A DNA stretch of 64,000 nt. Origin: Candidatus Omnitrophota bacterium (GTDB lineage: Bacteria > Omnitrophota > Gorgyraeia > 2-01-FULL-45-10). Each line of letters opens with the position of its first letter. Position 1 is the first letter of the stretch. The notes beneath the pieces were generated by a model, which was not told where the DNA came from, did not search any database, and saw only the letters and a program-made list of their open reading frames with translations. The stretch lies in assembly GCA_030695905.1 (NCBI GenBank), contig JAUYOL010000036.1, forward strand, positions 118,814 through 182,813. The letters are read 5' to 3'. Position numbers and translations under genes: made by a program. Of this stretch, positions 1 to 37,977 are shown piece by piece.

Positions 1-667
1 GACTGGTATATATAGCCGCGTACGGCGCCCGGCGTCCGATATCGTCAAAACAATGCCAATTATGCGCTCGGTAAAGATTCATCGGGAGCAGATCCCATGC
101 CGCGATCGGAATTCCGATATCCAGATTCTTGATCAGCGCCGCTCTCTGATTATTTCTTATCATGCCCCCTTCAGAAAACCATAGGCCGGGAACATGCGAA
201 AACTCATTTTTTCCTGATTTCAAAACACCTATCAGGATCTCTAATGTAAGCGGCCCTTCCCCTTCAATAGCAAAATCTACGCTCTCTTCTTCCAATGTCT
301 GCTTGGGCAATGCGGTCGGATGAAGCCCGCCGATAGCCACTTTGACAGCTGTATTGTCCTTTATCGCCTTACAGATCCTGCCGGCAATGGTCATGTTCTG
401 AGTAGACGCTGATGGCTGCGAGCCATATACAATTACGGCAGCTAATAAAGGATTTAGCTTTTTGACTCTTGCCGCCGTTTCTTCTGGGGTAATATTCTCG
501 GCATTAGCATCAATTATCGCGATCGTGTGCTTATTGTTCCTTAAATAGGCGGCTATTACAGCGGCCCAAAACGGAGGCTCGATCGCGGAATAGTCCTGCC
601 CCATATCCTGATAGACCTGTTTCCTATCGCCTGGATTTATCAATACAATATCAATTCTATCAGGCAT
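1..667 (-). CDS. Cobalamin-binding radical SAM protein, N-terminal part only (start ATG at 667, continues off the left edge). The translation MPDRIDIVLINPGD...AVKVAIGGLHPTALP has a B12-binding-domain look
   Basis: Hand translation of the minus strand from 667 gives an open frame to position 1. It contains GG-H-T-x-P, the same motif shared by the other six B12-rSAM genes here. The start overlaps the transketolase-C stop as TAATG. The radical SAM core itself is off-window. Confidence 0.55.
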   Translation of the reverse strand, partial: MPDRIDIVLINPGDRKQVYQDMGQDYSAIEPPFWAAVIAAYLRNNKHTIAIIDANAENITPEETAARVKKLNPLLAAVIVYGSQPSASTQNMTIAGRICKAIKDNTAVKVAIGGLHPTALPKQTLEEESVDFAIEGEGPLTLEILIGVLKSGKNEFSHVPGLWFSEGGMIRNNQRAALIKNLDIGIPIAAWDLLPMNLYRAHNWHCFDDIGRRAPYAAIYTS

Positions 668-1623
668 TAGTGTTGTCCCAATAACGCTTTAACATCTTTT
701 GCGATACTATTTTCACCCAGCTTGTTCAGTTCGTGCAGGTAATCCCTGCTTCCGATATCAAAAACATAGGAATCGTTAAAGCCGATATTTTTTAACCTTA
801 TCGGAGAATTGTTTTTATTTAATAAGTGCAAAATAATGCTGTCAAGCCCGGCCTTGTTAATAAACCCTTCCTCAAGAGTTAAAACATATCTATAATTTTT
901 TAACGCATTAAAGAGCGGGCCTTCATTTAAAGGTTTCAGCATGAAAATATCTATGAGCCCGATATCTATGTCTTCCTGGCTCAATTTTTCTACTACCCGC
1001 AATGCTTTATGGGTCATATATCCCGTAGAAACAAGACATAAATCTGTACTCTTTTTTAATTCACTGAATCCGCTTTCGATATCGGCCTTTTTATAAATTG
1101 AAGGAAGCGGTTTACCGTCAAACCTGAGATACTTTGGCTTTTTCACCTTTATCGAATAGTCCACAAATCTTTCAGTTAGCACCCAGTCGCTTGGAGAGAA
1201 TATTTCTATGTTCGGCAATACCCTCATTATAGAAATATCCTCGAGGCAATGGTGCGTCGGGCCCGAAACATCGTAACTTAAGCCAGCCCCCACCCCGACC
1301 AGATTAACATTTACATCTTTAAGCTGCGACTGCATCGACAGATTGATCCTGATCTGTTCATAGGGGCGCATTGTCAGAAATGGCGCTATGGCATAGGCAT
1401 ATACCGTAAATCCCTCCAACGCTAATCCTGTTGAAATATTGACAAGGTCCTGCTCGGCAATGCCTACATTGATAAACCTGTCTTTAAAAGAGCTTCTTAA
1501 CCTGTCGAGTTTTGGAGAGCCAAAATCAGCACAAACAAAAAATATGCTTTTGTCACTCTCCATGCGGCTAGAGAGTTCTTCAATAAAAACGTCCCGCATT
1601 GTCTTTAAATTTTCTTTTTTCAT
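667..1623 (-). CDS. Transketolase, C-terminal (pyrimidine-binding) subunit of a split transketolase
   Basis: 318 aa. The GIAEQDLV motif and overall pattern are typical of the transketolase C-terminal section. It overlaps the N-terminal subunit gene by 4 nt. Confidence 0.8.
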   Translation of the reverse strand: MKKENLKTMRDVFIEELSSRMESDKSIFFVCADFGSPKLDRLRSSFKDRFINVGIAEQDLVNISTGLALEGFTVYAYAIAPFLTMRPYEQIRINLSMQSQLKDVNVNLVGVGAGLSYDVSGPTHHCLEDISIMRVLPNIEIFSPSDWVLTERFVDYSIKVKKPKYLRFDGKPLPSIYKKADIESGFSELKKSTDLCLVSTGYMTHKALRVVEKLSQEDIDIGLIDIFMLKPLNEGPLFNALKNYRYVLTLEEGFINKAGLDSIILHLLNKNNSPIRLKNIGFNDSYVFDIGSRDYLHELNKLGENSIAKDVKALLGQH

Positions 1624-2453
1624 TCTAACCCGGATACCAACGTATCGACCTCATCGGCCGAAAGATTTTTAATATGGCTTAAAGAATCTGTTTCAAGCCT
1701 GGCCACGCCCTTACCCTTAACGGTATTAGCGATCAAAACCTTTGGCCTCTTATTATCCGTTTCTTTAAAATGCCGCAGAGCATTACAAAGCTCCCCCACA
1801 TCATGGCCATTTACTTTTTTAGCGATCCAGCCAAAGGCCTCGAACTTCTTTTCCAGCGGAGCCAGGTCAATTATATTTTTGCAATAATCCAGCATGCATA
1901 CTTTATTATCATCCACGATAAGTACCAGATTATCCAGCTCATGCTCCGATGCGAACATTACCGCTTCCCATATCGAACCTTCATAGAGTTCTCCATCTCC
2001 GACCAACACAAATACTTTCTCTTTACGTTTCTTTCTTTTCAGGCCCAGGGCCATGCCGCAGCCGACGCCTAAACCATGGCCAAGAGAACCATTGACAGTT
2101 TCAAATCCGGGTATGATAGCATCCGGTATGCCTCCTAAAATGCATCCGGCCTTACAGACATTATTCAGGTATTCCTTAGGAAAAAATCCTAAATCCGCCA
2201 GTACGGGATAAAAAGAAACCGCGCCATGGCCCTTGCTGATTATAAACCTGTCCCTGCCTTCCCACGAAACATTCTTGGGATCAAAACTTATTACCTTGCC
2301 ATAATACAGCACGGCGAATATTTCAACTGCTGAAAGCGAAGAAGCAAGCCTTGTCTCCTGGGCAACCTTATGGATCTTCAGCGTTTCTTTCCTGACCCAT
2401 TCGGATTTTTCTTTCAAAAATTTCAATTTACTATATTTATCTGACATTGCCAT
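1620..2453 (-). CDS. Transketolase, N-terminal (thiamine-diphosphate-binding) subunit
   Basis: 277 aa. ThDP-binding motifs GHGAVSFYP, GSLGHGLGVGCGMALG and VGDGELYEGSIWEA. Confidence 0.8.
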   Translation of the reverse strand: MAMSDKYSKLKFLKEKSEWVRKETLKIHKVAQETRLASSLSAVEIFAVLYYGKVISFDPKNVSWEGRDRFIISKGHGAVSFYPVLADLGFFPKEYLNNVCKAGCILGGIPDAIIPGFETVNGSLGHGLGVGCGMALGLKRKKRKEKVFVLVGDGELYEGSIWEAVMFASEHELDNLVLIVDDNKVCMLDYCKNIIDLAPLEKKFEAFGWIAKKVNGHDVGELCNALRHFKETDNKRPKVLIANTVKGKGVARLETDSLSHIKNLSADEVDTLVSGLE

Positions 2454-3390
2454 ATATGTTGTTGGAGATAATTTTATACCCCTTTATCAGCTCTCTTATT
2501 CCCATATCGAGGGAATGGACCGGTTTAAAACCTGCCTTTTCTATTTTCTCATTTGATACGATATAATCCCGCTTATCGGGATCCTGCCCGACCTGAGATT
2601 CCATATATACAAAATCAGGGATATGTTCTTTTATCTTTGCGCATAGTTCTAACTTTGAAAGATTCGCATCGGACAGGCCGACATTATAAGCCTCATTCTT
2701 CATTTCAGAAAACTTTTCCATTGCATGCATAAAAACGCGCGCCACATCGCGCACATGAATGTAGTTTCTCCTAAAATGGCCCTCAAATACAACTACAAAC
2801 CTGTCATTTACCGCTCTGTAGGTAAAATCATTTACCAGTAAGTCGATCCTCATCCTTGGCGATACGCCAAAAACAGTAGCGAGGCGAAAACTTATTGAAT
2901 TTCCCCTATCAAGGATTATCTTTTCAGCCTCCATCTTCACCCTGCCATACAGGGTAAGCGGGTTTAACGGGCTTTTTTCCGTACAATGTATATCCTTCTG
3001 GCCGATGCCGTAGCCGCTGTTCGTAGTAGGCATGATTATTCTTTGCTCTTTGGATGCAAGTTTTGCGATCAGGCCTATGGCATCTCTGTTTATTGTCACG
3101 GCTCCGGTCTTATCCCTGTTACATAACGGTGCGCCGACCAAAGCTGCAAGCGGAATAATATAATCGGCATCTTTAAGAAGCGGTTTTAACACGGCTTCGT
3201 CTCTGGCGTCCCCTCTTACGACATCAAAGCCTTTATAAGTACAGCAATCCAGTAGCGAGTTTTGGCCATACATGAAATTATCCAACACCGTAATCTTATA
3301 TCCTGACTTTAGCAGCTCTGGAATCAAAGCTGATCCGATGTAACCTGCGCCGCCTGTAACTAAAATACTTTTTCCGGTTTCCTTCACCAT
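2437..3390 (-). CDS. NAD-dependent epimerase/dehydratase (extended SDR)
   Basis: N-terminal Rossmann motif ILVTGGAGYIGS; YGRVK (YxxxK) catalytic motif. Confidence 0.7.
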   Translation of the reverse strand: MVKETGKSILVTGGAGYIGSALIPELLKSGYKITVLDNFMYGQNSLLDCCTYKGFDVVRGDARDEAVLKPLLKDADYIIPLAALVGAPLCNRDKTGAVTINRDAIGLIAKLASKEQRIIMPTTNSGYGIGQKDIHCTEKSPLNPLTLYGRVKMEAEKIILDRGNSISFRLATVFGVSPRMRIDLLVNDFTYRAVNDRFVVVFEGHFRRNYIHVRDVARVFMHAMEKFSEMKNEAYNVGLSDANLSKLELCAKIKEHIPDFVYMESQVGQDPDKRDYIVSNEKIEKAGFKPVHSLDMGIRELIKGYKIISNNIYGNVR

Positions 3391-3420: not shown

Positions 3421-4209
3421 TTAAGTATATCTGACAAGAACATCTTCTCTTCTTTTAACCAGCGCCTTTGGGTTTTCTATCAGATCCGTGGCGCTCCAGG
3501 CATCAACGCAATATTGTTTCATATAATCGTAGTTAAAATATCCATAACCGCCATCTCCCCACCTGTCGCCCCATGAATTCTTGAATTTAAACAGCTTCTT
3601 TGGATCATCATATCCGATAACGCATATGGCATGACCACCCTGATATATCTCTTTTTTCTTTGGCATAGGAATCAGCCCTGTTTTGGCGGCCTTTTTTGTA
3701 AACCACGATTCATAGACGTCGACCCCTGCCAAAAATGGGCCATTGATCACAAGGCTTCTTTTCATATCCGGCATGGTCTTTAAGCGGGCATAGGCCATTA
3801 TCTTATATTTTACCGCTGCCTTACCAGAGCCTGTTTTCGGCTTATCTGACTGATGCGGCCGGTACGGCCAGTAATTTTCAGGCGGCGTGCCGTAATTCAA
3901 TAATATTTTCATGGCCACCCTCGGATACGTACCATCCTCTTCAGGGCTGCCATCATATTTTTTGCATAGCTGGTAAAGATATCTAGGTGAAAGCGAAATT
4001 AAATTCTTGTATTCTTTTGTATCCTGATATTCTTTCATGCCGACCACACTCGCGAACGCCACGCAAGTGCCTTCGTCCCCTTGACTTCTAACAGGTGTCA
4101 TGTTTTCAGTATAATCGATGTTGGGCGGCAGTGGAATCGGCGGCAGGACCAAGCCCATCGGAATATCACGCAAATCGCGGGGATCTTTTAAACAGCCTAA
4201 CCTACGCAC
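3421..4209 (-). CDS. Papain-like (C1A) cysteine peptidase domain protein with no signal peptide or prodomain
   Basis: QGDEGTCVAFAS matches the papain Cys motif QGSCGSCWAF. GGHAICVIGYDD supplies the catalytic His and NSWGDRWGDGGYGYF the Asn-Ser-Trp. The N-terminal 40 aa are Pro-rich with no hydrophobic leader. Confidence 0.65.
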   Translation of the reverse strand: MRRLGCLKDPRDLRDIPMGLVLPPIPLPPNIDYTENMTPVRSQGDEGTCVAFASVVGMKEYQDTKEYKNLISLSPRYLYQLCKKYDGSPEEDGTYPRVAMKILLNYGTPPENYWPYRPHQSDKPKTGSGKAAVKYKIMAYARLKTMPDMKRSLVINGPFLAGVDVYESWFTKKAAKTGLIPMPKKKEIYQGGHAICVIGYDDPKKLFKFKNSWGDRWGDGGYGYFNYDYMKQYCVDAWSATDLIENPKALVKRREDVLVRYT

Positions 4210-7403: not shown

Positions 7404-7964
7404 TCAGTGGTGCACGCCTTCTCCCTGAATTGATTTGATAATAGTCATAACTAAAATCTTGCCATCCAATAGAAGAGATTTGTTTTTCAGATAATACTCA
7501 TCAAATTCGACCTTAACCGGTATGGGGAGGCTATCTCTTCCGTTAACCTGCGCCCATCCCGTAACCCCCGGGGAAAGCTTATGTATATTTTTTTTAGTCC
7601 TTAACTCTATCAAATCGTACTGGTTAAATAATGCCGGGCGGGGGCCTACAAAAGTCATGTCCCCAGATATTATATTGAACAACTGCGGAAGCTCGTCTAG
7701 ACTAAATTTACGCAAAAATTCACCGAACGGCGTAATATAGTTATCCGGATTTTGAAAGAGATGAGTTGCGACAGTCGGTGCGCCAAGACGCATAGTGCGA
7801 AACTTTGGCATCTTAAATATTTTATTATCAATACCTACCCTATCCGACCAATATAAAGCAGGCCCTTTAGAGGTAAGCTTGATCACCAAACCGATAATGA
7901 GCATTGGGATGCTTAAAATAACTAATAAAAAACCCGCCATTATAAAATCAAAAACGCGTTTCAT
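7404..7964 (-). CDS. Undecaprenyl-phosphate sugar phosphotransferase (small PglC/WbaP-C-terminal-type initiating transferase)
   Basis: 186 aa with a single N-terminal TM. Conserved DELPQLFN and FVGPRP motifs of the bacterial sugar transferase family. Confidence 0.85.
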   Translation of the reverse strand: MKRVFDFIMAGFLLVILSIPMLIIGLVIKLTSKGPALYWSDRVGIDNKIFKMPKFRTMRLGAPTVATHLFQNPDNYITPFGEFLRKFSLDELPQLFNIISGDMTFVGPRPALFNQYDLIELRTKKNIHKLSPGVTGWAQVNGRDSLPIPVKVEFDEYYLKNKSLLLDGKILVMTIIKSIQGEGVHH

Positions 7965-9402
7965 TATGCCTTTTTAATTGTCGCGACAAGCATTTAGAGG
8001 AGATAAACATGCTTGTCATGTGCTTTACGAAAAAATAATTCAACTGCACCCAGTCCACTTTTATGTAGCTATAGAACTTATAGGCATTAAACATTGCTTT
8101 AAAAAGCCTATTACGCGGGAGCCGTATCAGCTTTTTTATTATAGGGATAAGAAAAGGAAACTGCACGGCGATTGCAAACAGATCATGCAGGTTGATAATT
8201 TCATTCTTATGTACTAATTTAAGCGGCGTGGAAGAATGATAATCCGGCTCTATACGATAATCGATATCCAAAAGGCCATTATCGGCCGCAAGTCTGTACA
8301 GCTCTGTCCCGGGATAAGGCTGGATTATAGAGATCCAGCTATAAGCAGGCTTGCATTTTACGTTCAATTCTACCGTTTCAAAAGCATCTGATAATGTCTC
8401 CTTAGGCAAGCCTATCATATTAAATGTTTCGAATTTGATATTATATTTCTTAAGCAAAGCACAGGCTTTAATGATCTGTTCATTGCTCATGGGCCTTTTC
8501 AGCACATCCCTCCTCAACCTTTCGCTGCCTGATTCTATGCCGATAACAACAAGAAAGCATCCGCTGTCCTTCAGTCCTTTGGCTATGCTTTCTGTCACCA
8601 GATCAACTCTGACGTGACAGCAATACGGTAAATTCACATCTTTCTTATATCTTTCAACAAACTCAGAGAACCATCTTTTATCAATTATGAATATATCATC
8701 TACAAAACGGACCGCTTTTATCTTGTACCGGGCTCTTATCATCTTCAGCTCCGCCATCATATTATCTATGTTCCGTTTTCGTACATACGTTCCCTTGCCA
8801 CTGTAGTAATCTTTAAGCTCCTTATTAAAACAATAGGTACAGCTATAAGGGCAGCCCCTGCCGGATATAACGTCCAATACCCCGTAATTTTTGTACTCAT
8901 AATATTCATTGATCAGGCTCCTGTCGGGAAAGGCTATGTTGTTAATATCGGCAAGCGGCCTTATCTCATTTTTTATGATCTGATCATTGACCTTAACGCA
9001 AAGGTTCGGGATCCGGGAAAAATCTTTGCGATCATTGATATTACGCAGTAATTCCATAAAAGCATCTTCTCCTTCGCCCCTACAGATAATATCTACGCCT
9101 GGTTCTTTAATAAATTCCGGGTAAAAAGTGGGATGCGGGCCGCCGAACACAGATAAAAAAGAGATTCTTTTTTTCAGCAAAGTATTAATCTTAAGGTATC
9201 TCTTTTCGGTGCCGGTAGTCACTGAATAGCAAATGACATCCGGACGGAATGCAACCGCTTTGTTTAAATATTTTCTATCCAGGTTCGGTATGAGCAACGA
9301 TGTTTCATGGCCTTCGTTTTTGGCGACAGAGATGAGATATAATAATCCTAACGGATCTCTGATGTCTGCGCTTGGTTTTAGATAAATAAATAATACTCTC
9401 AT
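7948..9402 (-). CDS. Cobalamin-binding (class B) radical SAM enzyme
   Basis: N-terminal B12-binding domain (VFGGPHPTFYPE). The radical SAM cluster motif CPYSCTYC (CxxxCxxC) lies in GRGCPYSCTYCFN. Confidence 0.8.
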   Translation of the reverse strand: MRVLFIYLKPSADIRDPLGLLYLISVAKNEGHETSLLIPNLDRKYLNKAVAFRPDVICYSVTTGTEKRYLKINTLLKKRISFLSVFGGPHPTFYPEFIKEPGVDIICRGEGEDAFMELLRNINDRKDFSRIPNLCVKVNDQIIKNEIRPLADINNIAFPDRSLINEYYEYKNYGVLDVISGRGCPYSCTYCFNKELKDYYSGKGTYVRKRNIDNMMAELKMIRARYKIKAVRFVDDIFIIDKRWFSEFVERYKKDVNLPYCCHVRVDLVTESIAKGLKDSGCFLVVIGIESGSERLRRDVLKRPMSNEQIIKACALLKKYNIKFETFNMIGLPKETLSDAFETVELNVKCKPAYSWISIIQPYPGTELYRLAADNGLLDIDYRIEPDYHSSTPLKLVHKNEIINLHDLFAIAVQFPFLIPIIKKLIRLPRNRLFKAMFNAYKFYSYIKVDWVQLNYFFVKHMTSMFISSKCLSRQLKRHNETRF

Positions 9403-16580: not shown

Positions 16581-17417
16581 CTATGCCTTGGCCTCAACCC
16601 AATAAGTATCCCATCTGGTCTTCTTTTTAAACATGCCGTCCTGGATAACGCGGAATCCGGCCGATCTCATGGCATTAAAAAATTCATTTCTATTCCTTGA
16701 ATATCCCCAGAGCTGACCCCTTTCCTTCAGGCCCAGCGTTTCCAAAAATCGTCTCGATATATTTTTCAATTCATTTAACAGTATGTCAAAAAAGGCCGAT
16801 GGTTCAAAAGACCAACTGATCAGGATACACCTTCCACCTTTTAATAGACGAAATCTGACATTTTTAAGAAGCGCTGTTAATTGCTCCTGATCCAGACAAT
16901 ATTCAACTCCCGCAAGATAGATCACATCAAAACCAATATCCGGAGGGATACATCCCGGGAAAGTTCCCACAAATATTTTCTCTTCCGGCATATGTTTCCT
17001 TATCCATGCAAGCGATTCTCCCGACCCCTCCGCTATGCTGAGATTAAACGGACCTATACCCAGCAGCGCTTTTTCTATCATGCCTATGCCGCATCCAACT
17101 GATAATATCCTGATATCTCCCAAACCTGAAAATCCATCCCGCAAAAACTCAGCGGTCTGTATTTTTAATTCGACCCATTCCGGATCAAGCTCATCCCAAT
17201 CCCTGTATCTTCCCAACAGCTTTTTGTAATACTCTTTATAAAAATCAGCAGCCGCAATGCGGACGGGAGAAACGGCGATAAAATCCTTGAAACGGATACC
17301 GTGCCATTCGTTCTGGAAAATCTTTCTCATCTTAATCCTTCTCCGGACTTTTGGCGTATAAATATGGAAACCTTTTTGATAAAGTAAATGGGATCGCCCA
17401 GTAATTTCCATAAACAT
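16581..17417 (-). CDS. Class I SAM-dependent methyltransferase
   Basis: ILSVGCGIGMIE (motif I) and an acidic motif II region. Confidence 0.6.
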   Translation of the reverse strand: MFMEITGRSHLLYQKGFHIYTPKVRRRIKMRKIFQNEWHGIRFKDFIAVSPVRIAAADFYKEYYKKLLGRYRDWDELDPEWVELKIQTAEFLRDGFSGLGDIRILSVGCGIGMIEKALLGIGPFNLSIAEGSGESLAWIRKHMPEEKIFVGTFPGCIPPDIGFDVIYLAGVEYCLDQEQLTALLKNVRFRLLKGGRCILISWSFEPSAFFDILLNELKNISRRFLETLGLKERGQLWGYSRNRNEFFNAMRSAGFRVIQDGMFKKKTRWDTYWVEAKA

Positions 17418-18826
17418 TTTTTCAAAAAAAGCATCGGAGAATTTATGAAAAAACTCCTTAAAAGATATTTTTCGCCTTCTGCGAGTATTTTTTTCAATTT
17501 TTTACCATCAAATTCCGGCGTAGAGACAGCAAAACTCCTGATATGCAGATCGTCAAGAGTAAAATCACTGCAAAGATAATTTTGCTTTTTGCATATATCA
17601 TAAAGTTCCGAGCCAGGATAAGGAGTTGCTATAGAAATATGCGGCGTGAAGACGCCGAGCTCTCTGGAAAGGCTAAAACTGTCCCACATCTGATCCTCCG
17701 TCTCACCGGGCATACCGATGACAAGGAAAAGGCCTACGTTTAAACCGATGCTCTTTGCGTATTTAACCAGCGGCTTTACCTTATCAAGATTTAATGGTTT
17801 TTTTATCAACCTGTCGAGGACATCCTTATTTCCGGATTCTACTGCAAAGTTTATTGTGCGGCAACCGCTCTTCTTCATCTTATCTATAAGACATTCGCTT
17901 AAGGTCCATGCGGCTATGCCGTTAGGAGTGTCCCATTCCATATCCAGCCTACTCTGCACCATGCCGTCAAATATCGCCTCGGCTCTTTTCGAATCCAGCG
18001 TTAAATTGTCATCCTCAAACATTATCTCCTCTATACCGTATTCCGCTTTTATCTGTTTCAGTTCTTTTATTACATTCTCGCAAGAACGGGGCCTGAAAGA
18101 CCGACCCCATACCGCATATGCGGAACAAAACGAACATCTCGCCGGGCACCCTCTCGAAGTTATTACAGGAGAAAAACGCCTTTTCCTCCTGTCTCCATGG
18201 GAAGATCTTAACCCAAAATACTTGTCCATATTCAACAGATGCCTGGCAGGAAAAGGCAATGAATCCAAATCATCTATAAACCTTTTTTTTGGGAGCACTT
18301 TAATCCGGCTGTCTTTTCGGTATCCAAACCCATCTAGCCCTGAAAGATCACATCTGCCCTCCAATAAATGCACCAGGTCTATGATTGTGCGTTCTCCCTC
18401 GCCAAGGACCACATAATCTGTGTTGGGGTCGGAGAGGACAAGTTCCGGCATAACCGTTGGATGCGCTCCGCCTGCAACCGTAATAATCATATTATTTACT
18501 TTTTTTGCTATTTTATATATCTCATGCGCGTTCTGACGCTGAATCGTAAAAAGGTTGTTCACGCCCACGATATCAGGACCGTAAGATTCTATAATCTTCT
18601 CTATCTCCTTGAAAGAAAGCCCTATTCTTATCATCTTATCTGATATTTCAGCATGGTCACTCCAACCGTCTATCAAACAGTCTACTATTTTTGTTTCTAT
18701 ACCTTCTCTCTCTAAAACGGCTGCCAGGTACCCAAGCCCAAGCGGGGGCATCGGATTAATATCAATCCTGTCCTTAAATGTAACTGCCGGGGGGATAAAC
18801 AAAAGGGCCTTTTTTATCTTCTTCAT
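17327..18826 (-). CDS. Cobalamin-binding (class B) radical SAM enzyme
   Basis: VAGGAHPTVMPE in the B12 domain; RGCPARCSFCSA carries the CxxxCxxC motif. Confidence 0.8.
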   Translation of the reverse strand: MKKIKKALLFIPPAVTFKDRIDINPMPPLGLGYLAAVLEREGIETKIVDCLIDGWSDHAEISDKMIRIGLSFKEIEKIIESYGPDIVGVNNLFTIQRQNAHEIYKIAKKVNNMIITVAGGAHPTVMPELVLSDPNTDYVVLGEGERTIIDLVHLLEGRCDLSGLDGFGYRKDSRIKVLPKKRFIDDLDSLPFPARHLLNMDKYFGLRSSHGDRRKRRFSPVITSRGCPARCSFCSAYAVWGRSFRPRSCENVIKELKQIKAEYGIEEIMFEDDNLTLDSKRAEAIFDGMVQSRLDMEWDTPNGIAAWTLSECLIDKMKKSGCRTINFAVESGNKDVLDRLIKKPLNLDKVKPLVKYAKSIGLNVGLFLVIGMPGETEDQMWDSFSLSRELGVFTPHISIATPYPGSELYDICKKQNYLCSDFTLDDLHIRSFAVSTPEFDGKKLKKILAEGEKYLLRSFFINSPMLFLKKCLWKLLGDPIYFIKKVSIFIRQKSGEGLR

Positions 18827-23870: not shown

Positions 23871-24629
23871 TCACCATGCGTGCAAACCGCCGTCAACATA
23901 TAATAAATGTCCGGTAATATATGAGGCGGATTCGGACGCCAGAAACAAAACAGGGCCTACGATATCTTTTTTATCGGCCATTCTTCTCAATGGTACTCTT
24001 GTACTGTATTGTTCTTGAAATAACCTGCTGTGCTTATCCAAAACCCCTCCCGGACAGATGGCATTTACTCTAATATTAAATGGAGCGGCATAACAAGCCA
24101 GATACTTGGTAAAGGTATTTATCCCGCCCTTTATTAATGGATATGACGGGAGGCTTGCGATTTCTGTATTTTTGTATATCCTGAAGTCCGGCGACAAGTC
24201 TCCGTATGTGGAACTGAAATTTATAATCACCCCGTGTTTAGCTTTTTTCATATTTATCAATATCTCTTTGCAACATCTGTAAAATCCTAACAGATGATCC
24301 ATGGTATCCCTTCCTACGATATCCGGATCCACATCTTCGATTCTGCCCTTAGAATTGTCCTGCCTGGGCCAGGCGCAGTTTATCCAAACGTCTATCTTCT
24401 TATCATGAACTATTACATCGGATATAAATCTCCGAATAGACTGAGAGGATGTTATGTCGATCTTTATATAATTTATATTACTTTTATTCCGAAAATTCTC
24501 GGGAACACGGGTACCGACAAAAACTTTAGCGCCGTAGCCGTCAAACGCATTTGCAAGCTCCGTACCGATCAGCCCGGTCCCGCCTATTACGCAAACTACC
24601 TTATCCTTCATATTGAGGAAATCTTTCAT
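23871..24629 (-). CDS. Short-chain dehydrogenase/reductase (SDR)
   Basis: VVCVIGGTGLIGTELA Rossmann motif; YPLIK (YxxxK) then NAICPGG. An alternative start at 24611 (MKDKVV) would shorten the overlap with the upstream gene. Confidence 0.7.
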   Translation of the reverse strand: MKDFLNMKDKVVCVIGGTGLIGTELANAFDGYGAKVFVGTRVPENFRNKSNINYIKIDITSSQSIRRFISDVIVHDKKIDVWINCAWPRQDNSKGRIEDVDPDIVGRDTMDHLLGFYRCCKEILINMKKAKHGVIINFSSTYGDLSPDFRIYKNTEIASLPSYPLIKGGINTFTKYLACYAAPFNIRVNAICPGGVLDKHSRLFQEQYSTRVPLRRMADKKDIVGPVLFLASESASYITGHLLYVDGGLHAW

Positions 24630-25719
24630 TATTTATCTCCTTTTTGAGCCTTTTACAAATCAGTTTTTGGTCGCATCTCGTATAGCATTTATGATCTTTG
24701 GGAAAATCACCGTTTATGTGCCATCTTCTAAAATTTTTATAATCCACACTGTTCCATATCTCTTTTAGGGTCTGACTGTTGGCATTGCCTAAAACCATCT
24801 CGCAATTATAATCCTGCGTGCATGGGACTACAGAGCCGTCAACCATTACAGTCATCGATGTCCACGGAAACTCGCAATACTGTGTTTCGTAATGAGACCT
24901 TGGTTTTCCCGCGTCATCATCCTTATAATACCATTGATTGTCCTGGCTCTTTATATAAGCATAGACATCCCTATCCTTCCAGAGGCCCATAAAGTCATCG
25001 TGCATCTTAACGGAATTTTTTGACCGAGAAAGGTCGAGCATCGTTATAACTATCTTGGTTTTAAGCGATGGGTTCTTTGATTTTGCATTTATAAGCTCGC
25101 GTATCAATTTATACGAACGCGTAAAATCGTTGCTCTTTCCCCTGATCTTCTTGGCGCTTTCGTCGTCGATCGCATCCATGGCGAATTTTATGACTCCGAC
25201 TCCGGCTTCCATCATTTTTATAAATTTATCCACATCTATATTTGCTGGCACGCAGGAGAAATAGGTCGGGATATTATATTTTGAACATAAAGCAATTCTT
25301 TCTACAAGATAAGGGTCCAGCGGCGGCTCACCATAACCGTGCAAGATCAGCGACTTTGATACCGTATAAAAATAAAACGCGTTTTCACTTTTATCCGATG
25401 GATGAATACGATATTCATCTGCGATAAATTTCCAGAAGCTATCCATCGCCTCTTTTTTGTGAGGCATTATCTGTTTTATGACTTTTTCAAAAAGCCCCAT
25501 CTTCATAACCTGCGCGGGACGCCTCATCAGGCTTGTACGCGGGCACATCTTGCATTTCATATTGCAAGCATTGGTCGTTTCGATATTAAAAACACACGGA
25601 TATTCATCTGTATGCTTCCTAAGGATTGCCGACACTTCGGCCTGGCGGATATGGGATTTCATATCGACGATCTTCTTTTTTATTTCCGAAGTGGTTCTAA
25701 AAAAGGATATATCGAACAT
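24601..25719 (-). CDS. Radical SAM enzyme with Cys-rich C-terminal (SPASM/twitch-like) region
   Basis: ETTNACNMKCKMCPR carries CxxxCxxC. Additional C-terminal cysteines in CEFPWTS...VVPCTQDYNCE. Confidence 0.7.
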   Translation of the reverse strand: MFDISFFRTTSEIKKKIVDMKSHIRQAEVSAILRKHTDEYPCVFNIETTNACNMKCKMCPRTSLMRRPAQVMKMGLFEKVIKQIMPHKKEAMDSFWKFIADEYRIHPSDKSENAFYFYTVSKSLILHGYGEPPLDPYLVERIALCSKYNIPTYFSCVPANIDVDKFIKMMEAGVGVIKFAMDAIDDESAKKIRGKSNDFTRSYKLIRELINAKSKNPSLKTKIVITMLDLSRSKNSVKMHDDFMGLWKDRDVYAYIKSQDNQWYYKDDDAGKPRSHYETQYCEFPWTSMTVMVDGSVVPCTQDYNCEMVLGNANSQTLKEIWNSVDYKNFRRWHINGDFPKDHKCYTRCDQKLICKRLKKEINNERFPQYEG

Positions 25720-26850: not shown

Positions 26851-27549
26851 TTATCTCCTTTTCTTATTTTTTAAAACTAACTCTGCGACGTGAAAATCCC
26901 ATGCCGTATCGATATCAAGCGACCTTTCCTGCGGCATAATGTAAGGTACCGCACCCTTGGGCACAAAAGTACGTTGCTTCAGAAGTGATGAGCAGGTATT
27001 CAGATAGATCGCACCATTTTGTTCGTACAATTCCGGCAACGCCTGCCTGTACATGTATCCGTCATTCGGAGGAATAAAATATTCCAATGAACGTTTTTTA
27101 TTTATGCTGTGTGTTTTATAAGGATATTTTATAATTTCACAGACACTGACAACAGCGAGTGTATTACGATTTTTGGCCAATTTAATGACATTTTCCATAT
27201 CTTCGGTTGTCCTGAAAGGAGATGTCGGCTGAAGCAGCATTATATAGTCCGGGTAACATGCCTCATGTTTTTTCAGCCAATCGATCGCGTGGAGCACGAC
27301 TGAGATATGTGGGGATTCATTTTTTGAAAGTTCTCCGGGGCGCCTGAACGGCACTTCGGCGCCGTGTCGCTTCGAAACCTTTGCGATTTTCTCGTCGTTA
27401 GTAGATACAATTACACGGCTTAAGCCCTTGCATTTCAACGCCGCCTCTATCGTCCATGCAATCAGCGGCTTGCCCGCAAGGATTTTTATGTTCTTCCCCG
27501 GTATGGATTTTGAACCGCCACGTGCCGTAATAAGCCCGATAATCTTCAT
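26851..27549 (-). CDS. neuA: CMP-nonulosonic acid synthetase (acylneuraminate cytidylyltransferase family, short form)
   Basis: MKIIGLITARGGSKSIPGKNIKILAGKPLIAWTI is the classic NeuA/CMP-Kdo-like N-terminus. At 232 aa it lacks the esterase domain. Confidence 0.85.
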   Translation of the reverse strand: MKIIGLITARGGSKSIPGKNIKILAGKPLIAWTIEAALKCKGLSRVIVSTNDEKIAKVSKRHGAEVPFRRPGELSKNESPHISVVLHAIDWLKKHEACYPDYIMLLQPTSPFRTTEDMENVIKLAKNRNTLAVVSVCEIIKYPYKTHSINKKRSLEYFIPPNDGYMYRQALPELYEQNGAIYLNTCSSLLKQRTFVPKGAVPYIMPQERSLDIDTAWDFHVAELVLKNKKRR

Positions 27550-27554
27550 AATCG

Positions 27555-28733
27555 CTATCTCCTAATATATTTTTTGCCGGACATACCTTTATTGTCCGTA
27601 TGATATTCACTGCAAAATTGCTTCTGAATTTCCGTGCACCAGATCTGGGATCCATTGAGTATAGAAATGAACCGCTTCACGCTCTTACCGTCCCCAAAAT
27701 GCGTGGTAGGGGTCTTCGGGACATCCGGTATCTTATTTATAGCGGATGTGATATCCGCTGCCGACTCGCGGACGTTAATGATAGTCTTATAAGCGAATCG
27801 CCCGCTTTGCCGGTTCCCGATATTTATAGACGGGATCCCGTAATACGGCGCCTCCCTGATACCTGAGCTCGAATTGCCGATGATGAATTCACAATTTTTA
27901 AGCAACGTAAGGAATGATTCGAAGCGTATCGAAGGAAATATCCTGAAATTTCGGTTTTTACTCATAAGCTTGAGTTCTCTTATTATAATATCTGACCCGC
28001 TGTCATTATTGGGGTATAATACTATATATTTTTTGCCGGAACTCGCCAGCGCCTTTGTGACCTGCCGGACATTATCGGATAAATCATGCAGATTCGTAGT
28101 TACCGAATGATATATGAATAGCGCGTATTCCTTAAAATCAATTTCGTAGTGCTTCTTGACCGCCGATAAAGCCGGGAGGTAGCCGGAATCCATAAGGTCC
28201 ATGTCCGGGGACCCTATCACATATATGTTTGACTTCTTCTCGCCCATCTGAAGCAGCCTTTTCTTAGCTTCTTCATTCGACACGAAATGTACATGCGCAA
28301 GCTTCGATATCGAATGCCTTATTGATTCATCTATAGTCCCAGACAGTTCGCCGCCCTCTATGTGCCCTACGATAATATTGTTCAATGCTCCGACAACAGC
28401 ACCTGCAAGCGCCTCCACGCGGTCACCATGGACAATTATAAGGTCCGGCCTCGTCGCGGATACATAATCACCGAAGCCATGGATCGTATTCCCGAGTATG
28501 GCATCCATCGAATTGCCGGTTTTCTGATTATAATAACTAAATATATTTTTAAAGCCGGCTTTTATGACTTCGTCTACAGTGCTGCCGTATTTAGGCAACA
28601 TGTGCATGCCGGTTGCGAATATATGGGTTTCGAATGCCTTTTCCTGTTCGAGCGCTTTCATCAAAGGCTTAAGTTTGCCGAAATCGGCACGCGTACCCGT
28701 TAAAAAAATGATCTTTTTACTTTTCATAGACAT
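27555..28733 (-). CDS. neuC: UDP-N-acetylglucosamine 2-epimerase, hydrolysing (NeuC-type)
   Basis: IIFLTGTRADFGKLKPLMKAL...HIFATGMHM...VHGDRVEALAG, NeuC/LegG-like. 392 aa. Confidence 0.8.
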   Translation of the reverse strand: MSMKSKKIIFLTGTRADFGKLKPLMKALEQEKAFETHIFATGMHMLPKYGSTVDEVIKAGFKNIFSYYNQKTGNSMDAILGNTIHGFGDYVSATRPDLIIVHGDRVEALAGAVVGALNNIIVGHIEGGELSGTIDESIRHSISKLAHVHFVSNEEAKKRLLQMGEKKSNIYVIGSPDMDLMDSGYLPALSAVKKHYEIDFKEYALFIYHSVTTNLHDLSDNVRQVTKALASSGKKYIVLYPNNDSGSDIIIRELKLMSKNRNFRIFPSIRFESFLTLLKNCEFIIGNSSSGIREAPYYGIPSINIGNRQSGRFAYKTIINVRESAADITSAINKIPDVPKTPTTHFGDGKSVKRFISILNGSQIWCTEIQKQFCSEYHTDNKGMSGKKYIRR

Positions 28734-29766
28734 GCTCCCATTTCAACTGCCTGTTCTTCTTAATGCAGCATTTCGCCTTTTTTCCGAGAAGCGCGCTTAA
28801 GTGCCCTGCTTTTATCTCGCCTGTTCCAGGGCGCTTAACCCAGATGTTTTCTTTAGTCAGTTTTTCTCCTGCATCGATATCACGTATCGCGACCACACAG
28901 GCATACGCAAAATCTATCGTTGGTTGTTCCTCTTTTAAAATAGTTTTGCTGCCACCTGATGCCGAATGTATTATACGGCTGCCTGTAATCAATTGTCTGA
29001 GTTCACCGGGATCCATAGAGATAGCTATATCCGGCCCCGGCCAATCTTTATCGGATGTAAAATGTCTTTCAAGGATACTGGCTCCCAAAGCTACGGCCGC
29101 TAAACACGGAAATATGGTAAATGAGTGGTCCGATAGCCCGAGCACAGCATTCGGAAAATGCTTTTTGAGTTCGGCCAGCGCGCCAAGCCTTATTTTGCCG
29201 GGAGGTGTGGGATACATGGATGTGCAATGTAAGAGAGCATACTGCACTTTATTCTGCTCCAGAATTTTCACGCTTTTTCTGATAGAATTGATATTGTTCA
29301 TGCCCGTACTTAATATCACGGGCTTCCCGAAACCGGCAATATATTCTACAAGCGGATAATTATTGCATTCTCCGGAGCCGATTTTATAAGCGCCTACCTT
29401 CATGCGCTTCAGACGATCGGCTGCTTCGCGCGAAAAAGGCGTAGACAGATAAATCATACCTTTTTTATCCGTATATGCTTTTAGTTCCTTATCCCCTTCT
29501 TCCGATAATGCGCACCTGACCATGATATTCCAGATCGATTCTTTTGCGTTAGCTGGCACCACGCCGTTATAGATCATTTCATCTTCTATTACATGCGCCT
29601 GAAATTTAACACATTCACAGCCTGCAGCCACCGCATCGTCGACCATTTTCCTGGCTTTAGCGACGCTGCCTTCGTGATTAATTCCGATCTCGGCTATCAC
29701 GAGCGGTGGGTAATCTTCTCCGATCCTGCGGCCCGCAATATTAATTTCCGGTTTTTTTGGTTTCAT
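28717..29766 (-). CDS. neuB: N-acetylneuraminate (nonulosonic acid) synthase, NeuB family, with C-terminal SAF domain
   Basis: PLVIAEIGINHEGSVAKARKMVDDAVAAGCECVKFQ (NeuB TIM-barrel N-terminus), then LGLSDHS, then a C-terminal antifreeze-like domain. Confidence 0.85.
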   Translation of the reverse strand: MKPKKPEINIAGRRIGEDYPPLVIAEIGINHEGSVAKARKMVDDAVAAGCECVKFQAHVIEDEMIYNGVVPANAKESIWNIMVRCALSEEGDKELKAYTDKKGMIYLSTPFSREAADRLKRMKVGAYKIGSGECNNYPLVEYIAGFGKPVILSTGMNNINSIRKSVKILEQNKVQYALLHCTSMYPTPPGKIRLGALAELKKHFPNAVLGLSDHSFTIFPCLAAVALGASILERHFTSDKDWPGPDIAISMDPGELRQLITGSRIIHSASGGSKTILKEEQPTIDFAYACVVAIRDIDAGEKLTKENIWVKRPGTGEIKAGHLSALLGKKAKCCIKKNRQLKWEHVYEK

Positions 29767-31250
29767 GTATTTTTATTTCCCTGTTTTATTTTTTTAAATA
29801 CTTTTACGAGGCCTTTATAAAACATTTCGAATATTACGCAGCCACCCTGCATTAACCTGCGTATATCACAAACAGAACGTATCGTCCTGATATTTTCCCA
29901 CCATATCGCAGGGCTCAAATAATATTCAAGGTTCGCGCGCCTGTGCCAATAACGCATCTTATCAAGTCCAAAATTGGGGTTCACATATACGGGATTATCA
30001 AAATTCAACGAAAGATAATCGTGCCACTTGTCGACCTTGCGCAGCCCTCCGGTACGCTTACAGCTTTCATTTAATCCTGTCCCCGGATAGGGGACCGGCA
30101 GCCAGAATACCGATATCGGCGCTTTCATCTTTTTCGCGCATCTGATCGTGCGGCGGACCATGTCTTCGTTCTCATTCGGAAGGCAGATTATGAAATTATT
30201 CAGGCAGCGGAAACCGGCCTCGCGGACCCATCGAACACCGCGCATCTGCTCGTCTATAGTTATATTTTTATTCACAAAATCCAGCGTCTCCTGATTGCCC
30301 GATTCTACTCCTATGGCGATCTGTCTTCCGCCGGCTTTGTACATCATTTTAAGTAGCTCCGGGTCAACACAGTCGGCACGCGTATTACATGACCATAGTA
30401 GCCCCAGATCCGCCTCAACCATCTTTTTCATTAATTTCATCGTAAACTCACGGTTTATAGTAAAAGTGGAATCCTGGAAATATACACCGCGCGCCTTTTT
30501 CTCAAATTTTAAAATTTTCAATTCCTCTACAATGCGTTCCGGACTGTAAAAACGTATTTTTTTACCGAGAATTTTTGACGCGCCGCAATATGTGCAGCTA
30601 TATGGGCATCCCCTTTGCGTCATCACGGAATAATTCGGGAGCACCACATACTGCGTCATATGGGGCACGTAGCGTTTGAGGTCCAAGTCCGAATAAAAAC
30701 CTAACGGCAGGCTGTCAAGGTCCATGACAAACGGGCGCTGTTCGTTAATAATAATTTTTTCTCCTTCACGATATACCAATCCCGCTATCTTTGACCATTC
30801 ATTTCCTCCGGACAGTTCCGACAAAAATTCATCCATCGCATGTTCGCCTTCATGGCGTATGATAAAATCCAACTCCGGACACTGCTGCATGCTGAGTTCC
30901 GGTAGCATCGTTACATGAATATTGCCCATCACGACTTTTGAACTCGGCAGTGCTTCTTTAACGATTTTTGCCGTTTCGAACGCATAATCCGCGGTCGGAG
31001 TATATACAGATAATCCGACAACATCGTAAGATCTCTTCTTTAAGTATTGTTTCAATGAATCGGCGACAAAATCGCCGAACTGCATATCAATAAAATCAAC
31101 ATCGTGCTTCTTGCTCTTGAGCCAGGAATAAATCGAGATAACACCCATCGGCGGAAGATGGCCCTGCAAGGATGACACGTCTCCCCATGCCGCTTTAACA
31201 GGGCTTAATGGTTCAAGTAACAATGTCTTTAATTTTTGGCCGTTTTTCAT
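29763..31250 (-). CDS. Cobalamin-binding (class B) radical SAM enzyme
   Basis: VMGNIHVTMLPE in the B12 domain; RGCPYSCTYCGAS carries CxxxCxxC. Confidence 0.8.
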   Translation of the reverse strand: MKNGQKLKTLLLEPLSPVKAAWGDVSSLQGHLPPMGVISIYSWLKSKKHDVDFIDMQFGDFVADSLKQYLKKRSYDVVGLSVYTPTADYAFETAKIVKEALPSSKVVMGNIHVTMLPELSMQQCPELDFIIRHEGEHAMDEFLSELSGGNEWSKIAGLVYREGEKIIINEQRPFVMDLDSLPLGFYSDLDLKRYVPHMTQYVVLPNYSVMTQRGCPYSCTYCGASKILGKKIRFYSPERIVEELKILKFEKKARGVYFQDSTFTINREFTMKLMKKMVEADLGLLWSCNTRADCVDPELLKMMYKAGGRQIAIGVESGNQETLDFVNKNITIDEQMRGVRWVREAGFRCLNNFIICLPNENEDMVRRTIRCAKKMKAPISVFWLPVPYPGTGLNESCKRTGGLRKVDKWHDYLSLNFDNPVYVNPNFGLDKMRYWHRRANLEYYLSPAIWWENIRTIRSVCDIRRLMQGGCVIFEMFYKGLVKVFKKIKQGNKNT

Positions 31251-36864: not shown

Positions 36865-37976
36865 TTCAAATCCAGGCTGGGCATCATCTTGAAGCATGGC
36901 ACCCTGTTCAGTAAAATATTAAAAGACGTATCCTGCGCCCAACAGATACAATTATTTTTATGCAAGCGGATCTCTTCGCGCTGACGGATCATTTCTGGGC
37001 TGTTCCATAGTTGCCGTATTGATAAATTATTGATATTCCCCATGCTTGGATAATTAATATTTGCGGTACAATGAAACACGTCGCCATTGGGCAATATCTG
37101 AAGCCGTAAAAACGGCGACCAGCACCTTACCTCCCTGGCGAGTTGTTCCTTATTGAACCAATAACGCGGTATAAGCCTGAAATAATCATTATTGAATTCG
37201 CTGTTCTTGCCGGTTAATCTATCAAAAATATTTTCTACATTTTTTTGTTCATCCGGCCTGAACATAAATTGCTCCATTGCCTCCGCCTCTTTATTATGCG
37301 GCCCATATATATAGCCGCCGACTATAGGCTGGAAACTCGTGACATCCGCGAGCGACTTCAGCCTCGCGTCTATACTGCCCAACCTATGGATATTACCTTT
37401 ATGGACAACTGTGGTGGACTTGATCAGCGGCCGCCTGCCTTTACGTTTTGACTTTATATATTTTATCGCGTTCTCCAGTTTCTCATATAAACCCGGCGAA
37501 TTCCTGATGCTATCATGCTCATCGGGTTTGTCGCTGTCGATACTGACAACTATATAATCCACCTTGTTTTTTATGATCTCGTCCGACTTTTCTCTTAGCA
37601 AAAGCCCGTTCGTGACAATATACACTATGACATTGCGCTCTTTGAGGATCTTGATCACATCAAAAAGATGCGGCCATAACAACACCTCTCCCCCGGTAAA
37701 CCCCACAGAATATGTTTTGGCGTCGATTATTTGGCGCGCTATCTCTTTGGCGCGCTCAGCGCCGACCTGTTCCGGAAACCGTTTTTTCAAACCGTGAGTC
37801 GAGCAAAATTTACAATACATGTTACAGTCATAAGTAACAAGCCATGTCACGAAAAGCGGGCCCCTTTTCGAAGGACGATTCAGTACCCTAGTCAAGACAA
37901 TACTGTAGACAAATGTTATGAAGGCCCTCGCCAGGCTCATGTTTACCGGTACGGGAAATATTCTTTTAAAATTCAT
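36861..37976 (-). CDS. Radical SAM enzyme with SPASM-like C-terminal Cys cluster
   Basis: VTYDCNMYCKFCST carries CxxxCxxC. C-terminal CWSPFLRLQILPNGDVFHCTANINY. The start is taken at the internal Met (37976), just after the upstream stop. Confidence 0.7.
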   Translation of the reverse strand: MNFKRIFPVPVNMSLARAFITFVYSIVLTRVLNRPSKRGPLFVTWLVTYDCNMYCKFCSTHGLKKRFPEQVGAERAKEIARQIIDAKTYSVGFTGGEVLLWPHLFDVIKILKERNVIVYIVTNGLLLREKSDEIIKNKVDYIVVSIDSDKPDEHDSIRNSPGLYEKLENAIKYIKSKRKGRRPLIKSTTVVHKGNIHRLGSIDARLKSLADVTSFQPIVGGYIYGPHNKEAEAMEQFMFRPDEQKNVENIFDRLTGKNSEFNNDYFRLIPRYWFNKEQLAREVRCWSPFLRLQILPNGDVFHCTANINYPSMGNINNLSIRQLWNSPEMIRQREEIRLHKNNCICWAQDTSFNILLNRVPCFKMMPSLDLK

Positions 37977-37977
37977 T

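Follow-up and report, generated by a model that had tools for sequence, protein, structure and literature searches.

Three classes of thiamine diphosphate (ThDP) enzymes are credited with branching keto sugars, namely YerE-like enzymes of decarboxylase type in lipopolysaccharide (LPS) biosynthesis, two-subunit enzymes of alpha-keto-acid-dehydrogenase type in antibiotic biosynthesis, which use pyruvate, and split-gene transketolases (TKs) (PMC12247030). Branching is known for the YerE- and E1-type enzymes, whereas for TKs it has only been proposed, from a few Streptomyces antibiotic clusters (miharamycin and amipurimycin; 13 predicted sequences, all from Streptomycetes), with hydroxyacetyl transfer expected and no in vitro test reported for any split-gene TK in this 2025 review (PMC12247030). 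Here we describe a pair of split TK genes, TK-N and TK-C, in a 64-kb stretch of DNA from a Candidatus Omnitrophota bacterium (contig JAUYOL010000036.1, positions 118,814 to 182,813; hereafter the window), together with their homologues in other genomes. We interpret the two chains as a heteromeric, re-specialised ThDP enzyme that would be the hallmark of a conserved cassette for GDP-heptose tailoring, a predicted decarboxylative carboligase adding an acyl unit to a GDP-keto-heptose, and give this reading a probability of roughly 0.55.

With the miharamycin and amipurimycin TKs, this locus shares a two-gene TK in a sugar-tailoring cluster, an adjoining (here predicted) ketone-making oxidoreductase and the proposed addition of two carbons to a keto sugar. 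Those TKs belong to Streptomycete secondary metabolism, whereas the genes considered here lie in cell-surface glycan loci of uncultured Gram-negative (diderm) phyla, a Candidate Phyla Radiation (CPR) bacterium and archaea, are tied to GDP-heptose enzymes and usually to a B12-binding radical S-adenosylmethionine (rSAM) protein, and have an active-site signature, Arg/Ile/Gly/Ser/Gly, that makes a ketol donor unlikely. In yersiniose biosynthesis, E1-type deoxygenation yields CDP-3,6-dideoxy-4-keto-glucose, YerE adds a pyruvate-derived two-carbon unit and YerF reduces, and YerE relatives add longer keto acids (PMC9306805). The logic of YerE/YerF, ErwE, MMAR_2332 and MygE (a 4-keto group, E1-type 3-deoxygenation, ThDP-dependent acyl transfer and NAD(P)H reduction, in LPS-type glycans) is that which we propose here, but YerE is a single chain of the acetolactate-synthase-like decarboxylase superfamily with a domain order not homologous to a split TK, it acts on a CDP-3,6-dideoxyhexose rather than a GDP-heptose, and its pathway has no rSAM enzyme. 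The alpha-keto-acid-dehydrogenase-type enzymes (alpha-KADH2: aldgamycin, kibdelomycin KbDH-alpha/beta, paulomycin Pau11/12) are likewise two-subunit ThDP proteins of the TK/E1 superfamily that place a pyruvate-derived two-carbon branch on deoxy-keto sugars, yet they belong to the E1 alpha/beta family, to actinomycete antibiotics and to dTDP-type deoxyhexoses, while the best matches here are Transketolase_N and Transket_pyr.

By fold, the pair is a TK in two adjacent genes, with the diphosphate-binding (PP) domain on one chain and the pyrimidine-binding (Pyr) and C-terminal domains on the next. Among PDB entries, TK-N is closest to the N-chain of a split TK, 6yak (2.8e-51; human TK, 3mos, 1.4e-42), and TK-C to 6yaj (7.2e-34), these two being the functional split TK of Carboxydothermus hydrogenoformans. 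Nothing places the pair in the YerE family, the match to TPP_enzyme_C being marginal (6.1e-6) and confined to the ThDP motif. The sequence-only reading of this DNA had called a split, translationally coupled TK pair, which is borne out by the Pfam domains and by the ATGA, read in the sequence, that the TK-N stop and TK-C start have in common.

Relatives of TK-N divide overall into two groups, one at 50-91% identity and one at 46% or less. A protein search gave thousands of matches, the best 120 of which are 64-91% identical and all metagenomic, and a scan of one genome per species found 27 loci with 50-89% identity, set apart by a gap from the ordinary split TKs, which reach no more than 46%. 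The TK pair is a discrete, sharply separated subfamily (at least 50% identity). All 27 loci come from metagenome-assembled genomes (MAGs), of Omnitrophota (including the nearest relative in the species scan, an Omnitrophica MAG at 89% identity), Planctomycetota, Nitrospirota, Desulfobacterota, Chitinispirillaceae and Rhodospirillales, along with one Shapirobacteria CPR genome and two Methanoperedens archaea.

We aligned 33 subfamily with 53 outgroup N-chains and 32 subfamily with 38 outgroup C-chains, checking the residue mapping on the human TK and C. hydrogenoformans split-TK alignments and using yeast numbering. Counting along the printed alignments gives human His37, His77, His110, His258, Glu366, His416, Asp424, Gln428 and Arg474, which we equate with the yeast and E. 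coli numbers. In canonical TKs, according to the established literature, His30 and His263 are catalytic, His103 and His481 bind the ketol C1 hydroxyl, Arg359, Ser386, His469 and Arg528 bind phosphate, and Asp477 contacts the acceptor 2-OH. The cofactor site is retained throughout the subfamily: the GDG...N motif for ThDP and Mg2+ is kept (Asp153, Glu155 and Asn183 of TK-N in 33/33), the cofactor-activating Glu418 is Glu57 of TK-C (32/32), and His69, His263 and His481 (His124 of TK-C) are conserved. The substrate site is not, as His30 has become Arg (Arg35 in TK-N; 33/33, with His in all 53 outgroup chains), His103 Ile (Ile109 in TK-N; 33/33, with His in 44 of 53 outgroup chains), His469 Gly (Gly112 in TK-C; 32/32), Asp477 Ser (Ser120 in TK-C; 28/32) and Arg528 Gly (Gly170 in TK-C; 29/32), the last followed by Lys (Lys171; 31/32). 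Arg359 is kept and Ser386 is Ser or Ala. Of the 120 database matches that score best with TK-N, 109 carry both N-chain changes by a simple motif test. With the cofactor residues intact and the substrate residues replaced, we interpret TK-N/TK-C as a conserved, presumably active ThDP enzyme that is re-specialised and, to judge from these residues, cannot be a normal transketolase.

Relative to canonical and split housekeeping TKs (6yak/6yaj, 3mos), the pair shares the fold, the ThDP/Mg motif, the activating Glu, His69, His263 and His481 and, with the split TKs, a heteromeric build, and differs in the replacement of His30, His103, His469, Asp477 and Arg528. What EC 2.2.1.1 calls for is accordingly missing on several counts: the His30/His263 pair, the His103/His481 pair, the phosphate and acceptor residues, and the NCBIfam equivalog score, since the two halves reach 225.6 (N) and 134.8 (C) bits against NF004559, about 360 in total versus a transketolase cutoff of 488. 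A housekeeping or auxiliary TK supplying sedoheptulose-7-phosphate for heptose synthesis would make sense of a pathway that starts from that sugar, of hosts (archaea, CPR bacteria) that may have a poor pentose-phosphate pathway, and of the lack of a second TK in the window. We nevertheless rejected it as extremely unlikely, on the loss of the five residues for the canonical reaction and phosphate binding essentially throughout the subfamily (ordinary split TKs, many from CPR, keep them), on the sub-cutoff score, and on a gene context in which the strict linkage is to nucleotide-sugar enzymes and not to pentose-phosphate genes. That the pair is no central-metabolism TK, as the sequence-only reading had preferred, is upheld by the invariant non-canonical signature and by partner genes absent from the 53 ordinary split-TK loci. 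When metabolism is reconstructed from MAGs, such pairs should not be labelled as the transketolase of the pentose-phosphate pathway.

The positions changed in the subfamily are those that have been engineered in TKs. In Geobacillus TK, H102L (with H474S) makes pyruvate and other alkyl keto acids into donors, the non-polar residue binding the donor's alkyl chain (PMC11997939), and in the E. coli enzyme the changes H461S, D469S/T/A and R520V/Q/G give higher activity on aldehydes that are neither phosphorylated nor hydroxylated, with D469S/R520G among the best natural-variant doubles (PMC3657141). From this correspondence we infer a non-hydroxylated alpha-keto acid such as pyruvate as the donor, with Arg35 a plausible ligand of its carboxylate. 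The same reasoning predicts a bulky acceptor that has no alpha-hydroxyl and is recognised by something other than a terminal phosphate, as would be true of a 3-deoxy-4-keto nucleotide sugar.

Classical ketol transfer, that is, glycolaldehyde or hydroxyacetyl from a ketose phosphate or hydroxypyruvate onto a keto sugar as proposed for miharamycin and amipurimycin, would agree with the fold and split architecture of the proposed Streptomyces branching TKs and with the retention of His263 and His481. We consider it distinctly unlikely, as every member has Ile in place of the His that contacts the ketol hydroxyl and Arg in place of catalytic His30, as the equivalent H102L moves a TK toward pyruvate and alkyl keto acids, and as paralogous pairs in the same loci that have both His (L027, L034) suggest that ketol specificity exists separately. 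The glycolaldehyde donor first suggested from the sequence is probably wrong for the same two replacements. A stand-alone alpha-keto-acid decarboxylase or C-C lyase, making or removing a small cassette metabolite with no carboligation on sugar, could account for an active-site Arg, which suggests a carboxylate substrate, and the cassette would already use alpha-ketoglutarate if its first oxidoreductase, a short-chain dehydrogenase/reductase (SDR1), acts like Cj1427 (below). It appears very unlikely, given that no neighbour suggests an acceptor-independent role and that the acceptor-side positions 469, 477 and 528 are also remodelled and invariant, which points to a specific second substrate.

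The paralogous split TK-like pair occurs in three loci (L005, L027 and L034) and in L005 and L027 has its own adjoining B12-rSAM gene; it keeps His30 and His103 and is without His469 and Asp477 ('GVGAG', 'DIMGPTHH'). Such pairs make TK-like genes seem a broader tailoring element of glycan loci, with at least two donor types. Some outgroup split TKs also depart from the canonical pattern, with Gly at His469 in 15 of 38 C-chains, Leu at Asp477 in 11, no His103 in 9 N-chains, and a TK-N motif 'IAH[IL]ASAFS' in L035-L039, L046, L048 and L077; these replacements indicate further non-canonical split-TK groups (Bacilli, Tenericutes, Saccharibacteria and others).

Open reading frames (ORFs) were called in all 86 loci and compared with the cassette proteins; many of the subfamily contigs are truncated. 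Past TK-C, the source contig continues on the same strand with the rSAM gene, a GHMP kinase, an NTP-transferase (nucleotidyltransferase), a DegT-fold protein and a second SDR (SDR2), and Pfam context gave the same order (SDR, TK-N, TK-C, B12-rSAM, GHMP kinase, NTP-transferase, DegT-fold, SDR) around three further homologues. Across the subfamily the same families recur while their order differs between phyla. Unbiased ORF clustering of 31 independent loci, spanning about 8 phyla, returned only eight recurrent families: TK-N (31), TK-C (30), rSAM (25), SDR1 (23), NTP-transferase (20), GHMP kinase (20), DegT-fold protein (19) and SDR2 (19). Orthologues of SDR1 (at least 50% identity) were found in 23/31 subfamily and 0/53 outgroup loci, and those of rSAM (at least 45% identity) in 25/31 and 0/53; the GHMP kinase and SDR2 orthologues were likewise in 0/53 outgroup loci, with looser matches in 6 of the 53 for the DegT-fold protein and in 1 for the NTP-transferase. 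A partner set conserved despite a shuffled order is strong evidence that these genes work together. The rSAM gene is the usual immediate neighbour of TK-C, and these two form the tightest gene pair. In the literature we found no paper on this gene combination, nor on a TK in O-antigen or heptose clusters. The whole cassette is present in L010 and L014 (Methanoperedens) and in L026 (Shapirobacteria), where TK-N is 60-69% identical to the Omnitrophota copy, a level that across domains indicates recent inter-domain transfer.

The identities of the partners point to a heptose. SDR1 matches PDB 6vo6/6vo8 at 3e-116 (55.5% identity over 310 residues with no gaps), which by its PDB molecule name, presumably the Cj1427c genome annotation, we take to be Cj1427 of Campylobacter jejuni. 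We predict SDR1 to be a Cj1427-like NAD-dependent GDP-heptose C4-dehydrogenase that makes the keto group. The substrate class first suggested, an NDP-4-keto-6-deoxyhexose, is probably wrong, as SDR1 resembles Cj1427 and not a 4,6-dehydratase. In C. jejuni, Cj1427 regenerates its bound NAD with alpha-ketoglutarate in a ping-pong cycle, giving L-2-hydroxyglutarate, and together with the HS:5 C3-dehydratase yields GDP-3-deoxy-4-keto-heptose in vitro (PMC10680097). The GHMP kinase has HddA as its best NCBIfam match (154.9 bits, far below the cutoff of 600), and the nucleotidyltransferase has the mannose-1-phosphate guanylyltransferase (ManC) model (176.2 bits, cutoff 440) and then HddC (152.4 bits, cutoff 300). 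SDR2 matches E. coli GDP-fucose synthase (Fcl) at 3.9e-87 and also the C. jejuni heptose C4-reductases. Genes for heptose synthesis lie in cis in 8 related loci: the Methanoperedens locus L014 has both GmhA and GmhB, and seven more have one of the two, which in the CPR locus L026 is GmhA (GmhB 187 bits, above its NCBIfam cutoff of 178; GmhA 185-191 bits, just below its cutoffs).

The DegT-fold protein is nearest to E1 3-dehydrase and ColD. In all its orthologues His replaces the lysine that binds pyridoxal 5'-phosphate (PLP), a replacement also carried by distant (30%-identity) DegT proteins in other subfamily loci, and this argues for a C3-dehydratase; an aminotransferase making an amino sugar was ruled out on the same residue. 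The orthologues also have four conserved Cys in a CxCxxC...C-KRF motif. The protein appears to lack the first Cys of the E1 [2Fe-2S] site and may bind an Fe-S cluster in a way other than E1. We found no E3-type reductase gene conserved near the 3-dehydratase in the subfamily loci.

Taken with SDR1, the His of the DegT-fold protein and the GmhA/GmhB genes in cis lead us to read the pathway as GDP-heptose tailoring; the Cj1427-like SDR1, the His-type DegT 3-dehydratase and the Fcl-like SDR2 are co-located, as would suit branching of a keto sugar. An idea dropped along the way had the TK make a free ketose de novo, to be activated by the kinase and nucleotidyltransferase in the manner of the methylerythritol phosphate (MEP) pathway; it gave way because SDR1 matched 6vo6, the kinase and transferase matched HddA and ManC/HddC, and GmhA/GmhB occurred in cis. 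The C. jejuni GDP-heptose pathways (Cj1427, HS5.12, Cj1430, Cj1428/MlghC/DdahC, HddA/HddC/GmhA/GmhB) share with the cassette a Cj1427-like dehydrogenase, a 3-dehydratase of the pyridoxamine 5'-phosphate (PMP)/PLP type, an Fcl-like C4-reductase, putative HddA-/HddC-like activation enzymes and, in four subfamily loci, an RmlC-like epimerase. They differ in that no ThDP or rSAM enzyme is listed for them (PMC10680097), and in that the dehydratase here is a four-Cys, E1-like protein in most members. Four cassettes enclose a DAO-family flavoprotein whose best NCBIfam match is L-2-hydroxyglutarate oxidase (246 bits, cutoff 299). By analogy, this protein would recycle the L-2-hydroxyglutarate by-product of a Cj1427-type enzyme; the C. 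jejuni heptose-pathway review mentions no such oxidase partner (PMC10680097).

In the pathway we propose, GmhA, the kinase, GmhB and the nucleotidyltransferase would turn sedoheptulose-7-phosphate into GDP-heptose, SDR1 would oxidise C4, and the His-type DegT protein would remove the 3-OH in most lineages. The TK-like enzyme would then decarboxylate a non-hydroxylated alpha-keto acid, most simply pyruvate, with Arg35 holding the carboxylate and Ile109 the alkyl group, and the acyl-anion equivalent would add to a carbonyl of the GDP-keto-heptose; attack at C4 would leave a tertiary-alcohol branch by YerE-like logic. The Fcl-like SDR2 would reduce the remaining ketone, the B12-rSAM could contribute optional tailoring (C-methylation or radical dehydration), and the outcome would be a sugar with at least nine carbons, so far undescribed for these organisms. 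Of the sequence-only reading, what stands as most plausible, given the signature and the co-occurrence, is that a C-C bond forms on a nucleotide sugar that has been oxidised and that the resulting sugar is branched or longer; the donor and substrate class it named do not stand.

Several observations weigh against our reading. SDR2 resembles a C4-reductase, and a reduction at C4 would mean that this carbon had not been made quaternary by the TK-like enzyme, which would have to attack elsewhere. Arg359 is kept and Lys171 could stand in for Arg528, such that a phosphorylated acceptor is possible, and His481 is kept, whereas engineered pyruvate-using TKs change it too. The identity of 6vo6 with Cj1427 is a provisional assignment guided by the record name, and the HddA and HddC matches fall well below the family cutoffs. 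Both the 3-dehydratase and the rSAM are missing from L031 (full 10-kb flanks) and L025 (short upstream flank). Finally, no cultured organism among the species representatives carries the cassette, from which it follows that its product has probably never been seen chemically so far.

The resemblance of SDR2 to a C4-reductase favours an alternative in which the side chain is extended instead. Here the rSAM would act on the heptose at its C6-C7 diol, either as a radical diol dehydratase of the AprD4 type or as a dehydrogenase, giving a 6-deoxy-7-aldehyde or a 6-ketone to which the TK-like enzyme would add two carbons, yielding a linear nonose-type sugar, and SDR2 would reduce C4 as in C. jejuni, in keeping with a typical GDP-4-keto-sugar reductase and a C4 that stays a ketone. 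TK-C and rSAM being the tightest gene pair, the Asp477-to-Ser change, which suits an aldehyde without an alpha-hydroxyl, and the paralogous TK-like/rSAM pairs of L005 and L027 all speak for it, as does AprD4 (6fd2) as the best PDB match of the rSAM. That match is weak, however (2e-14, core domain only), with NCBIfam matches to methyltransferases and to HpnJ/BchE equal or better, and the long-flanked loci L031, L025, L017 and L019 have the TK-like pair with no orthologous rSAM. Loci without rSAM or dehydratase imply that both are accessory to the TK step rather than prerequisites for it, and we regard side-chain extension as unlikely compared with acylation of the GDP-keto-heptose.

More broadly, and at somewhat less than even odds, we suggest that a cross-domain pathway (bacteria, CPR and Methanoperedens) makes an undescribed sugar of at least nine carbons from GDP-heptose, and that its TK pair would be the first TK-fold enzyme naturally acylating a nucleotide keto-sugar with a pyruvate-type alpha-keto acid, together with a B12-domain rSAM. 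If true, this would add a new enzyme class to glycan biosynthesis and a new higher sugar to the cell surface of lineages that are abundant and uncultured (Omnitrophota, Nitrospirota, Planctomycetota and Methanoperedens among them), and the pair would be a natural counterpart of laboratory-evolved TK variants and a natural TK scaffold for biocatalysis that takes alkyl keto acids and bulky non-phosphorylated acceptors. The subfamily offers a clean, testable case, with a diagnostic five-residue signature, hundreds of natural sequences and a probable substrate that can be made enzymatically, from GDP-heptose by Cj1427 with or without the C3-dehydratase.

At the locus itself, ORF calls and Pfam assign positions 667-3390 of the window to three minus-strand ORFs, an extended SDR, TK-N and TK-C (Table 1). 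SDR1 and TK-N overlap by 17 nt, and a TAATG is common to the TK-C stop and the rSAM start; together with Pfam, these overlaps agree with the earlier placement of the pair between a sugar epimerase/dehydratase (SDR1) and a B12-radical SAM gene. The pair had also been taken to terminate a glycan operon, which does not hold: genes beyond the window were read on the 171.5-kb source contig (Logan SRR13727529; locus L001), covering the window plus 8.4 kb, where the same strand continues gapless past TK-C, and a terminator scan 3' of TK-C found no site above chance. After SDR2 the source contig carries a carbamoyltransferase, a PMT_2 protein and another rSAM gene.

Table 1. Coordinates of the features discussed, in the window or, where marked L, in the numbered homologous loci (L001, source contig).
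Feature	Sequence	Positions	Strand	Remarks
SDR1, extended SDR	window	2437-3390	-	317 aa; Pfam Epimerase 1.7e-31
TK-N, ThDP/diphosphate-binding (PP) half	window	1620-2453	-	277 aa; Pfam Transketolase_N 6e-32
TK-C, pyrimidine-binding and C-terminal half	window	667-1623	-	318 aa; Transket_pyr 7.8e-24, Transketolase_C 1.9e-14
B12-binding rSAM, N-terminal part	window	2-667	-	222/489 aa; Pfam B12-binding 1.5e-18; runs off window
B12-binding rSAM, complete gene	L001	11787-13256		489 aa; B12-binding and Radical_SAM domains
DegT-fold protein	L001	14933-16129		CxCxxC...C-KRF motif
Papain-family (C1) cysteine peptidase	window	3421-4209	-	directly upstream of SDR1; Pfam Peptidase_C1 2.1e-22
C1 peptidase	L002	14330-15130		
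C1 peptidase	L009	about 887-1600		
L-2-hydroxyglutarate-oxidase-like gene	L004	12961-14088		
L-2-hydroxyglutarate-oxidase-like gene	L008	14981-16111		
L-2-hydroxyglutarate-oxidase-like gene	L009	7549-8682		
L-2-hydroxyglutarate-oxidase-like gene	L013	3628-4740		
Paralogous split TK-like pair	L005	1-2721		own adjoining B12-rSAM
Paralogous split TK-like pair	L027	3566-6900		own adjoining B12-rSAM
Paralogous split TK-like pair	L034	6223-7994		
B12-rSAM genes	window	2-667, 7948-9402, 17327-18826, 29763-31250, 43221-44726, 49624-51087, about 63000-63974	-	
Three other radical SAM genes	window	24601-25719, 36861-38030, 41173-42276	-	two with SPASM
CMP-nonulosonic-acid set	window	26851-29766	-	cytidylyltransferase, UDP-GlcNAc 2-epimerase, NeuB
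Carbamoyltransferase, called in two pieces	L001	17055-17294, 17552-18649		79 aa and 365 aa
PMT_2 (GT-C) gene	L001	18651-20399		behind the cassette
AglJ-like glycosyltransferase	L005	2731-3435		

The rest of the window is a unidirectional, one-strand glycan locus with a Wzy-like polymerase, a PglF-like dehydratase, an initiating transferase, glycosyltransferases, a flippase, a NeuB/2-epimerase/CMP-transferase set, many radical SAM and methyltransferase genes and two AsnB paralogues; the window has no GmhA, GmhB, cupin epimerase, L-2-hydroxyglutarate oxidase or gene for an AglJ-like family 2 glycosyltransferase (GT2). Its seven radical SAM genes with a B12-binding domain, and the three others beside them, are an unusually high density. 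The CMP-nonulosonic-acid set is flanked by B12-rSAM and methyltransferase genes and suggests a modified sialic-acid-like sugar in the same glycan. The C1 peptidase adjoins the cassette in three loci on differing sides (the window, L002 and L009), the L002/L003 copy, 65% identical, being at the opposite end of the cassette and the L009 copy being 34% identical; it is possibly associated with the cassette, odd company as it is for sugar-nucleotide genes. A frameshift, a pseudogene or an assembly error might explain the split call of the carbamoyltransferase. A GT2 protein of about 245 aa resembling AglJ/dolichyl-phosphate hexose transferases occurs in 9 subfamily loci, and on the source contig a PMT_2 gene lies behind the cassette; together they hint at loading of the sugar onto polyprenyl phosphate before its transfer outside the membrane.

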